From Sphingomonadales bacterium (lineage in GTDB: Bacteria > Pseudomonadota > Alphaproteobacteria > SMXS01): DNA of 40,000 nt. Under the pieces are notes generated by a model. The model did not search any database. It had not been told where the DNA came from and saw only the letters and a list, made by a program, of their open reading frames with translations. The position numbers were made by a program, and so were the translations under genes. The stretch spans positions 261,003-301,002 of the forward strand of contig JBFWZH010000001.1 of NCBI GenBank assembly GCA_050185585.1. Direction: 5' to 3'. Every line of letters starts with the position of its first letter. Positions within the stretch are counted from its first letter, which is position 1. Positions 23,971 through 40,000 of the stretch are shown one piece after another.

Positions 23971-25323
23971 TCACTCCGCTTCGTCGAGCAGGTTCTTGAA
24001 CACCTTGCCCTCCTTCTCGAACTCGCGCTGGATGCCTTTCACCGCGTCGTCGATGCCGATGGCGAGTTCGCCCCTCGCGATCGCCTTGATCGCCGCGAAC
24101 TGCACCACGTTGACGATGTTGCCCCCCGACAGCTCGAATCGGGCAAGGGCGCAGGCGAGGTCCTCGCGGCCCTTGCGGTCGGGCAGGGCGCGGCGCCAGA
24201 TGTCGCGGCGCTCGTCCTCGGCGGGGAAGGGGAAGCGGATGATGGCGTTGAACCGGCGCAGGAACGCGTCATCCATGTTGGCGCGGAAATTGGTCGCCAG
24301 GATCACCAGCCCGTCGAAATCCTCCACCCGCTGCAGCAGGTAGCTGACCTCCTGGTTGGCATAGCGGTCATGGGCGTCCTTGACGCTGGTGCGCTTGCCG
24401 AACAGGGCGTCGGCCTCGTCGAAGAACAGGATCCAGTCGCGGTTGCGGGCCTGGTCGAACAGGGCCGCCAGGTTCTTCTCGGTCTCGCCGATATATTTCG
24501 AGACCACCGTCGACAGGTCGACCCGATAGACATCGCGCCCGGTTGTTTTGCCGAGGAGCGTGGCGGTCAGGGTCTTGCCGGTGCCGGGCGGACCGTGGAA
24601 CAGGGCGCGGTAGCCTGGACGCAGCCGGCCTTCCATGCCCCACTCCTGCATCAGCGTGCGGCCGTGCGCGACCCAGTTCTCCAGCTCGGCGATGCGCTCG
24701 CGTGTGTCGGCCTCGAGCACCAGGTCCTCCCAGCCCAGCGCGGTCGTGATGCGCCGGGCAGGAAAGGCGGCACTGAACGCCGGGGCCTGGGCGGTGCCAA
24801 GCGTGAAGCGCTCGATCCAGTCGCGGGCCATGACGATACGGCCAGACAGCAGCGGTGCTCCGCCTTGCGGCGCCTCCAGTCGCAGCACGCCATCGGTGGC
24901 GAACCAGTGGTCGGGCGAGAACAGACGCTGCACCTCGAAGCGGCCGTCCAGGTCGTCGCCGGCCAGCAGGAAGGCGGCGGTCTCGCCGGTGGGCAGGAAG
25001 GTGCGGCTGCCGTCGTCGCGGATGCCGCCGATCTCCGGGAAATCGCCCTCGCGCGCCAGCGCCGCGCGGATCTCGGTGTCGAGCAGGGTCGGCCGCACAT
25101 GGGGCGCCAGCGCCAGCAGCAGCATCACATATTCGTCGAACGGCGGCTGGCGCTCGCGGATGAAATCGCCCAGCCGCGAGCCGTCGTCGAAGAACGCCAG
25201 CCTGATCTCGCCGTTTTCGGCAAGCTCTCCACCGGTGATGCGCGCCCGGACCAGCCGCGCGAGCACGCCCAGCGCCGCGTCCAGATTGTCGGCATTGGAG
25301 GGAATGGGCAGTTCGCGGTTCAT
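23971..25323 (-). CDS. AAA+ ATPase, eCIS-associated type (Afp15/Pvc15-like position)
   Basis: Walker A GPPGTGKT, Walker B ILFFDEADALF, sensor ATN, and an N-terminal non-ATPase domain of about 250 aa. Start chosen at ATG 25323 (GAGAGG upstream), because the track start at 25383 lies inside a palindromic repeat. Confidence 0.8.
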   Translation of the reverse strand: MNRELPIPSNADNLDAALGVLARLVRARITGGELAENGEIRLAFFDDGSRLGDFIRERQPPFDEYVMLLLALAPHVRPTLLDTEIRAALAREGDFPEIGGIRDDGSRTFLPTGETAAFLLAGDDLDGRFEVQRLFSPDHWFATDGVLRLEAPQGGAPLLSGRIVMARDWIERFTLGTAQAPAFSAAFPARRITTALGWEDLVLEADTRERIAELENWVAHGRTLMQEWGMEGRLRPGYRALFHGPPGTGKTLTATLLGKTTGRDVYRVDLSTVVSKYIGETEKNLAALFDQARNRDWILFFDEADALFGKRTSVKDAHDRYANQEVSYLLQRVEDFDGLVILATNFRANMDDAFLRRFNAIIRFPFPAEDERRDIWRRALPDRKGREDLACALARFELSGGNIVNVVQFAAIKAIARGELAIGIDDAVKGIQREFEKEGKVFKNLLDEAE

Positions 25324-25359
25324 CGGTTGCCTCTCGATGCAGCGCAAAAGCTCCTCCGT

Positions 25360-25458
25360 GTCCCTGAGCCTGTCGAAGGGCATTGCAGCGCTCGTGCAAT
25401 GCCCCCTTCGACGCCGCCTGCGGCGTCGCTCAGGACGGGCTTCGACAGGCTCGGGGAC
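25360..25458. repeat. Structured palindromic intergenic element (REP-like), copy 2
   Basis: Outer inverted arms GTCCCTGAGCCTGTCGAAG (25360-25378) and CTTCGACAGGCTCGGGGAC (25440-25458), with one mismatch. Inner hairpins are GAAGGGCATTGC/GCAATGCCCCCTTC and GACGCCGC/GCGGCGTC. It shares the 36-bp core with copy 1. Confidence 0.65.
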
Positions 25459-38600: not shown

Positions 38601-38694
38601 TCTGGATGTGGCTCAGGCCTTCGGCGCGCAGGAACGCGTAGTCATAAGCCGGTTCCAGGTCGATCCTGCGGTCGATGCTGCGCGCCTCAAGCAT
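35653..38694 (-). CDS. eCIS baseplate component with a baseplate-J-related N-terminal motif (Afp11/Afp12-like)
   Basis: 1013 aa. ATG 38694 overlaps the upstream stop by 8 nt. The N-terminal [30 protein letters not shown] resembles the conserved N-terminal region of baseplate-J/gp6-like wedge proteins in tail-like clusters. Confidence 0.55.
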   Translation of the reverse strand: [1013 protein letters not shown]

Positions 38695-40000
38695 TGCCTG
38701 GCACCTCCGCTATGCTGTGCCTTGCGGCCGAAACCAGGATCGAACGCGCCGTTGTCGCCTCGACCGTCTCCACATCCACCGGCGTCCAGCCGCCCGCCGG
38801 CGCGTCGATGTCGACCTTGTGAAACAGGCGGAAGTCGATGACGTAGTCCACCTCGGACCGCTCCTCGACGAAATCGATGATCGAGGATTTCCACAGCTTG
38901 CCGCCGAAGGCGATCTCGCCGCCGCCCGGCCGCGCCCAGGGCGTCAGGAAGTCGATCACCGCCTTGTTCAGCTCGTCCTTGTAGAAAGCGATGTCGCCGA
39001 TCTCGGGCCGGAAGCGGACCTTGAAGTCCACCTGGACCTCCTCGAATTTGGGATTCTGAACCTCGAGCCGCACGAAGGGCGAGACGCGCTTGCGCAGGAA
39101 GGCGTCGACCGCCGTCAGCGTGGCCTGGTCGGTGTAGGGCCGCAGCGGGTCTCGCGCGTTCTGGCCATGAGTCCAGGGAACGGTGACGACCGTGACCGCG
39201 CCGGGCATCATCTCGTTGTCGGCGATGATGACGTTGGCGGCGCTCCGCTTCAGTTCCGTCGTGCCCAGACACCTGACCCGGTAGAGGCGCGGGAACGCTT
39301 CCAGCACCAGCGCCTCGTAGTCGAACATGGTGACGGCTCGGTCCTTGTGCCTCAGCCGCTCGCTGACCCGGGTGGCGAAGGCATCGGGCCGCTCGACCGG
39401 GCGGCCGTCGAACGAGCTGTAGGGCTGGACGATCTTCTTGATGGCGAGATCGGGCGCCGCGAGCTTCGAGATGCTGCCCGCCGGCAGCGGCGTCTCGAGG
39501 AAGGCCGGGTCGTTGCCCGCGTCGGCGAATACCACCCGCGCGGCCTGCGCGTCCACTGACAGCAGGCGGTTGAGCGCGTCGGCGTCATGGGTCGCGGCAA
39601 TCCGGATCCAGCGCAGGCCGGCGGGCAGCAGATTGTGCGCAGTGTCGGCTTCCTCCGGCAGGTTGAGGCCGAGTACGCCGGAGCCGGTGAAGTCGTTGGT
39701 CTTGTCGTCCACATCCTGCGGGTCGAACGCGGTCCAGGCATCGCCGTCGAGGAACGAGAACTGCAGGTCGGGCGCCTTCTTCAGCGGATCGCCCGAGCCG
39801 TCGGCCACCTGGACCAGCAGGGTGAGACGGGCCGGGCTGTCGAAATCGGCGACGCCCACCAGCAGCGCGCCCTCGAAGGGGAATTCGGGGAACAGCCGGC
39901 CATCTGCACTACCGGCCGAGACGCCGAACGGATGCAGCAGCACGAAGCCCTCGACCGGGTCTCGGGTTGTCTCATAGGACGCCTCGATGCGCGTCACCAC
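38687..40000 (-). CDS. Baseplate-J-like protein, C-terminal part (5' end beyond the window)
   Basis: The ORF is open to the window edge. The C-terminal pattern VRLEVQNPKFEEVQVDFKVRF...LNKAVIDFLTPWA...GGEIAFGGKLWKSSIIDFVEERSEVDYVIDFRLF is typical of the Baseplate_J (gp47 / P2 gpJ / Afp11) C-terminal region. Confidence 0.65.
   Translation of the reverse strand: MVTRIEASYETTRDPVEGFVLLHPFGVSAGSADGRLFPEFPFEGALLVGVADFDSPARLTLLVQVADGSGDPLKKAPDLQFSFLDGDAWTAFDPQDVDDKTNDFTGSGVLGLNLPEEADTAHNLLPAGLRWIRIAATHDADALNRLLSVDAQAARVVFADAGNDPAFLETPLPAGSISKLAAPDLAIKKIVQPYSSFDGRPVERPDAFATRVSERLRHKDRAVTMFDYEALVLEAFPRLYRVRCLGTTELKRSAANVIIADNEMMPGAVTVVTVPWTHGQNARDPLRPYTDQATLTAVDAFLRKRVSPFVRLEVQNPKFEEVQVDFKVRFRPEIGDIAFYKDELNKAVIDFLTPWARPGGGEIAFGGKLWKSSIIDFVEERSEVDYVIDFRLFHKVDIDAPAGGWTPVDVETVEATTARSILVSAARHSIAEVPGNA

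Follow-up and report, generated by a model that had tools for sequence, protein, structure and literature searches.

AlgoCIS of Algoriphagus machipongonensis, a clade Ib contractile injection system (CIS), carries the cargo proteins Cgo1 and Cgo2 in its tube lumen, each composed of an N-terminal domain (NTD) that is disordered, DUF4157 and a variable C-terminal domain (CTD); its particles assemble without Cgo1/2, its Alg19 proteins form a tail fibre pointing downward, and it behaves as a free extracellular CIS (eCIS; PMC8894135). Loading of Cgo1/2 requires the NTD and the AAA+ protein Alg15, with DUF4157 being dispensable (bioRxiv 10.64898/2026.05.27.728243). In the thylakoid-anchored CIS (tCIS) of Anabaena PCC 7120, trimers of Cis19 build a 'crown' around the baseplate (PMC8894136). 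The CIS of Streptomyces davawensis encodes Tme (BN159_7576), in which DUF4157 occurs together with coiled coils and transmembrane (TM) helices; the protein is remotely homologous to tape measures and has an H-N-N endonuclease at its C-terminus (PMC11126660). DUF4157 itself is a recognised eCIS core and toxin-marker domain, often located N-terminal to toxins (PMC8213781; PMC11297309), and in metagenomic CIS it co-occurs with Alg19 rather than with Cis13 (PMC12210884). Here, we describe a 40,000-nt stretch of a Sphingomonadales chromosome (hereafter, the window), in which one CIS operon belonging to clade Ib, the AlgoCIS/tCIS lineage, very probably contributes its 3′ half (positions 23971-40000), with a loading and delivery mechanism as proposed below. 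The locus is genuine, well preserved and of a well-described type, and its giant cargo is a Cgo-/Tme-like polymorphic effector.

Gene content and homologies of the locus

Six open reading frames (ORFs) on the minus strand are tightly packed across 23971-40000, and an ORF check placed all of them, including the overlap and the gaps between them, exactly where the initial annotation of this DNA had put them:

38687-40000, minus strand: cis11, Baseplate_J wedge protein, C-terminal 437 aa (Pfam Baseplate_J, E = 4.5e-5); the ORF continues past the window edge
35653-38694, minus strand: cis12, gp6/gp7-like baseplate wedge, 1013 aa (PDB sequence matches); overlaps cis11 by 8 nt (38687-38694)
32428-35640, minus strand: Cis19/Alg19-type fibre ('crown') protein, 1070 aa (aligns to 9wt0_a and All3314); 12-nt gap to cis12 (35641-35652)
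32691-32846, minus strand: hexanucleotide (GCGTSG)n DNA repeat coding for a (Thr-Pro)n linker of ~52 aa (TRF: period 6, 26 copies)
31044-32417, minus strand: cis14, CIS tape measure protein, 457 aa (PF19268 CIS_TMP, full length, E = 5.4e-91); 10-nt gap to the fibre gene (32418-32427)
25495-31041, minus strand: giant DUF4157 cargo/effector gene, Cgo-/Tme-like, 1848 aa plus stop (PF13699 eCIS_core/DUF4157, E = 1.3e-29); 2-nt gap to cis14 (31042-31043)
23971-25383, minus strand: cis15, AAA+ ATPase, 470 aa, final gene of the locus (PF00004 AAA, E = 4.9e-28); 111-nt gap to the cargo gene (25384-25494)

Pfam places four of the six products, all well above chance, and the remaining two match solved CIS baseplate proteins (E = 5e-134 and 5e-42). 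The Baseplate_J-like C-terminus, the tape measure, the giant DUF4157 protein and the AAA+ ATPase had all been named correctly in the initial annotation, and Pfam, PDB homologues and flanking genes agree with its broader view of the region as the distal half of an Afp/PVC-superfamily CIS locus amid housekeeping genes. Both a cis11-cis12 wedge pair and a PF19268 tape measure encoded in one operon with a dedicated AAA+ ATPase, features of the Afp/PVC/AlgoCIS superfamily, are present.

Full-length Cis11, as read from an identical public contig (L001), comprises 1310 aa and, among PDB sequences, matches All3317 of the tCIS (E = 4.8e-142) and Alg11 of AlgoCIS (5e-108), as well as Pvc11 and Afp11. 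The 1013-aa product matches All3315 (5.3e-134), Alg12 (6e-119), SalCis12 (3.8e-41), Pvc12 (1.3e-17) and Afp12 (2.4e-15); its proposed role in the baseplate held up, whereas its description as 'baseplate-J-related' has to be corrected to that of the gp6/gp7-like wedge Cis12. The clade Ia systems Afp and PVC possess equivalents of Cis11, Cis12, Cis14 and Cis15, and matches to Pvc11/12 and Afp11/12 are weak but significant. However, the wedge proteins of the window locus are much larger (1310 aa for Cis11 versus 607 aa for Afp11 and 728 aa for Pvc11, an enlargement seen from its length and from the alignment with All3317 and Alg11, the cage domains that enlarge Cis11 in clade Ib lying outside the window). 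Afp and PVC further differ by adenovirus-like Afp13/Pvc13 fibres in the place of Cis19, by a long two-domain cap encoded behind the ATPase, and by toxins that are located downstream of this cap and are devoid of DUF4157.

The best-scoring solved homologues of Cis11 (All3317) and Cis12 (All3315) stem from the tCIS, which in addition shares the Cis19 crown protein (All3314) and has DUF4157 effector genes associated with it. The tCIS, however, encodes the TM-fibre protein Cis13 between cis11 and cis12, where the 8-nt overlap leaves no room in the window, and likewise none in the related loci L010, L012 and L013. Its Cis12 is longer (1335 versus 1013 aa), its effectors are divergent downstream genes, whereas the window effector resides inside the operon between the tape measure and AAA+ genes, and it is found in thylakoid-bearing cells, in contrast to the host of the window locus. 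Homologues of Cis11, Cis12 and the Alg19-type fibre are likewise detectable by sequence in AlgoCIS, which further resembles the window lineage in that relatives of the window locus have a short Pvc16_N-type cap and a cap adaptor at the 5′ end, and in that a DUF4157 cargo of NTD/DUF4157/variable CTD layout lies near the 3′ end beside the AAA+ gene. The AlgoCIS locus tags (ALPR1_12680-12765, with cgo1/cgo2 being 12695/12690) are consistent with the window gene order (PMC8894135). Identity is nevertheless low, with homology at E values of about 1e-42 to 1e-119 rather than near-identity. AlgoCIS has two cargos (498 and 1228 aa) versus a single one of 1848 aa in the window, which contains a CHAP/NlpC-P60-like domain and a hydrophobic module resembling phage tape measure proteins; its fibre carries PKD-containing extensions versus a (TP)n linker and a small β domain; and the window host is an alphaproteobacterium.

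The 1070-aa product had been left as 'unknown' in the initial annotation, yet it belongs to the Cis19/Alg19 fibre family. It aligns to AlgoCIS chain 9wt0_a and to All3314 (E ~5e-42; 8.6e-42 for All3314) over aa 3-343, 379-527 and 787-916, with the aligned blocks (three or four) extending to a DFCLPY(L)CC motif. The protein consists of a conserved ~930-aa body containing a TM-like helix (aa ~557-580), the CLPYLCC motif, the (TP)n linker that follows it, and a ~85-aa C-terminal β domain. The length of the linker varies among relatives, and slippage of the underlying DNA repeat may render the spacing of the fibre tip variable. Across relatives from Sphingomonadales and Pseudomonas, the body shares 58-63% identity, a value that falls to 34% for a homologue from Bacteroidota, which has CarboxypepD_reg domains in place of the tip; a conserved body with a variable tip is as expected for a receptor-binding fibre. 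A Cis19/Alg19-type fibre instead of Afp13/Pvc13 places the locus with clade Ib (the AlgoCIS/tCIS/MAC/T6SSiv group), and the reported co-occurrence of DUF4157 with an Alg19-type fibre applies to it, too. The TM-like helix is a strongly hydrophobic stretch of 22-24 aa (window 33901-33972, minus strand) that is near-identical in Pseudomonas and Sphingomonadales and replaced by a different, equally hydrophobic sequence in the Bacteroidota homologue. Such a segment could insert into a membrane or serve as a tether to it. No PDB sequence match was obtained for aa 528-786, the middle portion of the fibre protein that includes this helix.

The dedicated tape measure has a length of 427-457 aa in the relatives and occupies the identical position in each of them. 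Cis15 combines a unique N-terminal portion of ~215 aa with a single classic AAA domain, the motifs of which are intact (Walker A GPPGTGKT, Walker B ILFFDEAD, sensor-1 ILATN and Arg finger FLRRF), and its position and size are alike in all relatives. Immediately past its stop codon lies a 10-bp inverted repeat (GCAACCCAGG / CCTGGGTTGC).

The order Cis11, Cis12, Cis19, CIS_TMP, giant DUF4157 protein, AAA+ is identical in Pseudomonas jinjuensis, Labrenzia and Mangrovivirga (Bacteroidota), where the AAA+ gene is followed by unrelated genes. In these loci, the products measure ~1210-1310 (Cis11), ~1013-1021 (Cis12), 1053-1190 (Cis19), 427-457 (CIS_TMP), 1788-1848 (DUF4157 protein) and 442-470 aa (AAA+). 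The gene order, initially judged unusual, is so relative to Afp/PVC, but not relative to these loci or to AlgoCIS, with which it agrees. In Mangrovivirga only, a 193-aa ORF without Pfam match lies behind the AAA+ gene.

A genome scan with full-length Cis11 retrieved five related loci, which inform on the upstream half of the operon. In a Sphingomonadales metagenome-assembled genome (MAG; locus L006, 81% identical), cis11 is preceded by 10 kb coding, in this order, for a Pvc16_N cap, a small ORF, the sheath, two gp19-type tube proteins, CIS_tube, a VgrG-like spike, PAAR and gp25. The initial annotation had suggested profile searches for sheath, tube, VgrG-like spike, PAAR, gp25 and cap genes, and all of these were found here. 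The Pvc16_N protein of L006 comprises 200 aa and heads the operon, with two genes of the beta-lactamase family located before it. In the Pseudomonas locus L004, the ORF that separates sheath and cap comprises 197 aa and matches All3327 (2.4e-26) as well as the cap protein of AlgoCIS (4e-18); judged by these matches, it forms with the Pvc16_N gene the pair of cap and cap adaptor known from clade Ib. A short single-domain cap and a second cap-family gene are encoded at the 5′ end in the relatives, and the sheath, tube, initiator, spike, PAAR, gp25 and cap genes are all present and collinear in L006 and L004. The earlier observation that no cap gene follows the ATPase is correct, but the cap is not missing from this lineage. 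On the source contig itself, ~4.1 kb beyond base 40000 were covered and contain the rest of Cis11, followed by the C-terminus of gp25, 93% identical to L006. Separately, the Cis12 homologue of L006 (13923-16953) is broken up into a 444-aa and a 757-aa ORF that overlap, owing to either a frameshift or a MAG assembly error.

Genes for capsid, portal, terminase, integrase, holin or endolysin were found neither in the window nor in the 10-kb flanks of the five related loci, and TssJLM, TssBC-type, TssK and ClpV genes of type VI secretion systems (T6SS) were absent from the Pfam-scanned genes of the window and the related loci. This extends what had been noted for the window (i.e., no capsid, terminase, lysis, integrase or T6SS membrane-complex genes), and the capsid, portal, terminase, TssJLM or ClpV genes that the initial annotation had named as upstream neighbours incompatible with a CIS do not occur within the 10-kb flanks of the related loci.

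Anatomy and family of the giant DUF4157 protein

With 1848 aa, the cargo gene is the largest ORF of the cluster, the runner-up being Cis11 (1310 aa). Its longest possible ORF (25495-31248, minus strand) begins with a TTG at 31248, and an ATG at 31041, 2 nt past the stop codon of the preceding gene, gives the 1848-aa product as called in public assemblies. The protein is identical to P0007, annotated as 'DUF4157 domain-containing protein [Sphingomonadales bacterium]', and can be divided into six parts:

30382-31041, minus strand: aa 1-220, N-terminal motif and acidic E/Q/A/K repeats (translation, composition)
30151-30381, minus strand: aa 221-297, DUF4157/eCIS_core with HExxH (Pfam)
29452-30150, minus strand: aa 298-530, CHAP/NlpC-P60-like papain-fold domain (invariant residues, AlphaFold2 (AF2), Foldseek)
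28162-29451, minus strand: aa 531-960, Pro/Ala/Asp/Glu-rich, probably disordered (composition)
26752-28161, minus strand: aa 961-1430, phage-tape-measure-like helical module (PHROG matches, hydropathy)
25498-26751, minus strand: aa 1431-1848, exchangeable C-terminal toxin domain, probably a divergent ββα-Me (Endonuclea_NS_2-like) nuclease, with the motif VRMHLLPHKLGGDAVDSNLTPA

The N-terminal part contains, upstream of its acidic repeats, the motif PGDxxExEADxxADxVV (aa 40-65; window ~30847-30924, minus strand), in which E52, A55 and A59 are invariant across 35 homologues from several phyla, making it a candidate packaging signal. By analogy with characterised cargos, aa 1-220 as a whole are presumed to be the loading sequence. 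DNA tandem repeats are present within this part (30568-30762), and disorder of the cargo was deduced from amino-acid composition. In the adjacent DUF4157 domain, H286, E287 and H290 are invariant in the homologue alignment and the AF2 model is confident. A low-complexity NTD, DUF4157 with HExxH and a variable CTD together make up the layout known from Cgo1/Cgo2.

The segment following DUF4157 (aa 298-530) had neither a Pfam nor a PHROG match and matched TIGR02594 weakly (E = 0.09). Its C402, H453 and N482 are nonetheless invariant, and its AF2 model (predicted local distance difference test, pLDDT, of 88.7) retrieved by Foldseek the NlpC/P60 hydrolase RipB (E = 0.016, probability 0.99) and the CHAP domains of the phage endolysins LysK and LysGH15 from the PDB, together with phage CHAP and NlpC/P60 proteins from BFVD (E = 3e-5 to 5e-4). 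From these models, aa 298-530 are probably a peptidoglycan hydrolase. The subsequent region (aa 531-960) yielded no family matches, PHROGs included, and is the least conserved stretch within the N-terminal 1430 aa.

The module at aa 961-1430 comprises amphipathic followed by hydrophobic helices (Kyte-Doolittle hydropathy ≥ 1.6 at ~1312-1332 and ~1365-1391). Almost all PHROG matches of the protein are to families of 'tail length tape measure protein' (1e-13 to 1e-5 for the whole protein), and such matches recur when aa 961-1160 and aa 1161-1430 are searched separately. Since tblastn with the hydrophobic module as query gave no match in 50,697 phage genomes, the link to phage tape measures is remote and exists at the profile level only. 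A duplication of Cis14 was considered as the source of this module and rejected, as the two share no similarity.

The C-terminal domain aligns over its full length (E = 5e-25) to that of P0045, which carries PF13930 Endonuclea_NS_2, with VRMHLLPHKLGGDAVDSNLTP standing opposite VRGHLVNDNLHGPGESSNLVP in this alignment. Residues H215, N229 and N239 (domain numbering) are invariant across two types of C-terminal domain and correspond to the H-N-N signature of ββα-Me nucleases. Tested directly against PF13930, the domain stayed sub-threshold (E = 0.13), and its AF2 model (pLDDT 88.8) retrieved EXOG, EndoG, Sda1 or CPS-6 nucleases as all of the top 50 PDB hits in Foldseek, at weak E values (0.02-0.6). 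It is thus, on the combined alignment and model evidence, a probable ββα-Me nuclease. Pfam and NCBIfam searches with sub-segments of the cargo returned sub-threshold matches only, to Endonuclea_NS_2 (E = 0.13) and TIGR02594 (E = 0.09), and searching the whole cargo and a 35-sequence family profile against PDB sequences produced nothing meaningful.

Within the family, a set of 116 long homologues has a median length of 1778 aa (interquartile range, IQR, 1720-1836), with the part up to the toxin boundary amounting to ~1430 aa and being conserved across phyla. The best-conserved segment is the tape-measure-like module, its identity declining from 94% to 51% among closer homologues and reaching ~30% for the remotest ones listed. 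In contrast, the C-terminal domains of the 116 homologues fall into 7-15 clusters, depending on the threshold. P0017, for example, shares 95% identity with the window protein in the tape-measure-like module, but its C-terminal domain belongs to a different type and is only 27% identical. Such exchange of C-terminal domains between near relatives is the pattern of polymorphic toxins. An exhaustive HMMER search with aa 298-1430 detected 2887 representative clusters when E ≤ 1e-30 was required and 4486 with E ≤ 1e-10, many of which lack the CHAP-like part; the tape-measure-like module is therefore very common in metagenomes, though unannotated. The idea of a rare C-terminal domain, based on six proteins found with this domain alone, was dropped since the full-length search uncovered far more homologues. 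Four members (P0120, P0139, P0143 and P0150; ~3000 aa) are about twice as long as usual; their second half contains the tape-measure-like module, and DUF4157 occurs in two regions of P0120. They may be tandem fusions of two cargo genes.

Judged from its published description, Tme resembles the window protein in being the largest ORF of its cluster, with an N-terminal DUF4157, long disordered or coiled-coil parts and hydrophobic or TM helices. Both are remotely homologous to phage tape measures, and the H-N-N endonuclease at the C-terminus of Tme has a probable counterpart in the window cargo, recognised there by weak direct scores. They differ in location, with tme situated immediately upstream of baseplate genes, whereas the window gene and its relatives lie at the 3′ end between cis14 and cis15. 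The Tme clade is moreover described as distant from characterised systems, in contrast to the clade Ib-like window locus, and the window cargo contains the additional CHAP/NlpC-P60-like domain. Known DUF4157 toxins associated with eCIS likewise pair an N-terminal DUF4157 with a C-terminal toxin, separated by a 'very long linker' of at times >1000 aa (PMC8213781; PMC11297309). In the window family, however, this 'linker' is no spacer but the best-conserved part, containing the putative peptidoglycan hydrolase and the tape-measure-like module.

Chromosomal setting

The locus borders ordinary chromosomal genes, the nearest landmarks being:

23139-23657, minus strand: hsp20, adjoining the AAA+ gene on the same strand
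21807-23084: asd, flank of the locus
19346-19420, minus strand: tRNA-Gly(GCC), ~4.5 kb past the end of the locus

As initially described, the locus ends at hsp20 and asd. We considered hsp20 as an operon member, immunity or chaperone gene and rejected this: it lies outside the operon because it has its own promoter box (CTTGAA-N15-CCCAAATGT at ~23705-23735, minus strand, σ32-like as read by eye) and its own strong intrinsic terminator (23116-23091, minus strand), and is missing from the related loci. An Rfam scan of the window found the tRNA alone, with no ROSE element above threshold at hsp20. The tRNA-Gly gene is a possible landmark for island insertion.

The G+C content of the locus (~67%) is the same as that of its flanks, with no compositional break seen between them, and the numerous long antisense ORFs are an ordinary artefact of high G+C. 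Within the cargo gene, G+C dips to 0.62-0.63 at 26-28 kb and the AT skew is very strong (down to -0.48; window 26000-31000), which reflects Lys/Glu/Ala-rich coding and not foreign origin.

The flanks further encode a LON-substrate-domain protein, a thioredoxin-TPR protein, a sulfotransferase, a TPR protein, a dienelactone hydrolase and a CoA-transferase. Additional housekeeping functions in the window include a K+/H+ antiporter, an NAD-glutamate dehydrogenase (NAD-GDH), purH and a heparinase-like gene. A compact trio at 10369-14811 (minus strand) encodes an asparagine-synthase-like (AsnB-like) protein, a RimK-like ATP-grasp protein with an RLAN domain and a GNAT acetyltransferase, and may be a small cluster for peptide or amino-acid modification.

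Proposed mechanism and alternative readings

Gene content, homologies and modularity can be read from the locus as described above, while everything dynamic, extracellular action included, we infer from relatives. As in AlgoCIS, PVC and Tme, Cis14 would set the length of the tube. Cis15 would recognise the disordered acidic N-terminus of the cargo, unfold the protein and feed it into the lumen of the tube. Once attached to a target via their variable C-terminal tip, the Cis19 fibres would trigger the baseplate and contract the sheath, driving tube and spike into the target cell and expelling the cargo. Based on the anatomy of the latter, its CHAP/NlpC-P60-like domain would then cut peptidoglycan, the tape-measure-like hydrophobic helices would insert into a membrane, and the exchangeable ββα-Me nuclease would attack nucleic acids and kill the cell. 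A cargo combining a peptidoglycan-cutting with a nuclease domain suggests that the target is probably walled, i.e. a bacterium.

Several points weigh against this scheme. Production, release and loading of particles are presumed here from gene content, and no genes for lysis or release are visible. The best-scoring solved homologues belong to an intracellular, membrane-anchored system, and the fibre has a conserved TM-like helix. Given that DUF4157 is dispensable for loading in AlgoCIS, this domain has no assigned role in the window cargo. The nuclease and CHAP assignments have weak direct scores (0.13 in Pfam, 0.09 for TIGR02594, at least 0.016 in Foldseek against the PDB), backed by their consistency, by invariant residues and by an intermediate homologue, and similarity to tape measures is confined to profiles. 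Finally, no immunity gene was found behind the toxin domain in four loci with differing C-terminal types (window 25384-25494, L010, L012 and L013), which is unusual for an antibacterial polymorphic toxin.

A bolder version of bacterial targeting, which we put forward tentatively as conceivable rather than probable, takes the 1848-aa protein as a bacteria-directed, self-translocating conduit derived from a phage tape measure. Here, the CHAP/NlpC-P60 domain would open the peptidoglycan, the hydrophobic helices would assemble into an inner-membrane channel and the nuclease would be threaded through it into the cytoplasm of a diderm cell, with the TM-like helix of the Cis19 fibre taking part in engaging the membrane. 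This would explain why an N-terminal part of ~1430 aa is conserved across phyla at near-constant length, how toxins can be swapped without immunity genes (the toxin being inert until refolded in the target), and how a toxin acting in the cytoplasm could cross a two-membrane envelope by means of an eCIS.

Some of the same observations could be read differently, namely that a CIS of this lineage stays in its producer, either membrane-tethered in the manner of the tCIS or of a subtype iv T6SS (T6SSiv), or cytoplasmic as in Streptomyces, and is fired upon stress, with the cargo acting on the producer to cause lysis and release of extracellular DNA (eDNA) as with Tme. The tCIS origin of the top solved Cis11 and Cis12 homologues speaks for such an intracellular mode, as do the fibre helix, of which hydrophobicity rather than sequence is kept across phyla, and the lack of both a lysis cassette and an immunity gene in the four loci; furthermore, the characterised effector with the most similar architecture, Tme, acts on its producer (PMC11126660). 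However, the tCIS anchor Cis13 with its TM helix is absent, given the overlap of cis11 and cis12 by 8 nt, and the host is no thylakoid-bearing cyanobacterium. AlgoCIS, which has the same Alg19-type fibre and a DUF4157 cargo, is a free eCIS (PMC8894135), and a variable fibre tip together with swappable toxin domains fits a weapon against diverse outside targets. On balance, we consider an intracellular mode unlikely.

The giant protein could also be mainly a structural or assembly component, i.e. a second, phage-type tape measure or a 'needle' of the tube lumen, required by each particle rather than being a dispensable cargo, to which the C-terminal enzyme is an accessory. Its single copy, fixed position and near-constant length in all loci examined would suit such a role, and so would the tape-measure-like module being its most conserved part, present in the 2887 clusters mentioned above. 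In addition, the Pfam name of its DUF4157 domain is now 'eCIS core', and Tme co-purifies with spike and tube-initiator proteins (PMC11126660). Yet a dedicated PF19268 tape measure, unrelated in sequence, is encoded directly upstream, AlgoCIS particles assemble without Cgo1/2 (PMC8894135), and C-terminal swaps between near-identical N-terminal parts are the signature of a delivered toxin, which together leave a mainly structural role quite improbable. We effectively exclude that the region is a decayed prophage tail, a cluster for an R-type tailocin or a portion of a T6SS: Baseplate_J and tape-measure-like proteins are present, and the relatives have gp25, gp19-like tube, sheath, VgrG and PAAR families common to phages and T6SS, but CIS_TMP (PF19268), DUF4157, the single-domain AAA+ protein and Pvc16_N/DUF4255 caps are CIS-specific, no phage head, packaging, integration or lysis genes and no T6SS genes occur in the window or the 10-kb flanks of the five related loci, and the cassette of the relatives borders unrelated host genes at both ends.

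As an eCIS locus, the operon adds little to the thousands already catalogued. Its value lies in being a clean and compact example of a widespread cassette that has had no experimental study, combining a clade Ib particle with a single giant modular effector and remaining nearly unchanged across Alphaproteobacteria, Gammaproteobacteria and Bacteroidota. In the window family, the 'long linker' of DUF4157 toxins is a conserved functional module, in which a swappable toxin is preceded by a putative hydrolase of peptidoglycan and by a membrane module resembling tape measures. If this module is truly a delivery device, it would bear on how CIS cargo crosses bacterial envelopes and on how payloads of programmable CIS may be exchanged by swapping the C-terminus, an idea already proposed for Tme and AlgoCIS.

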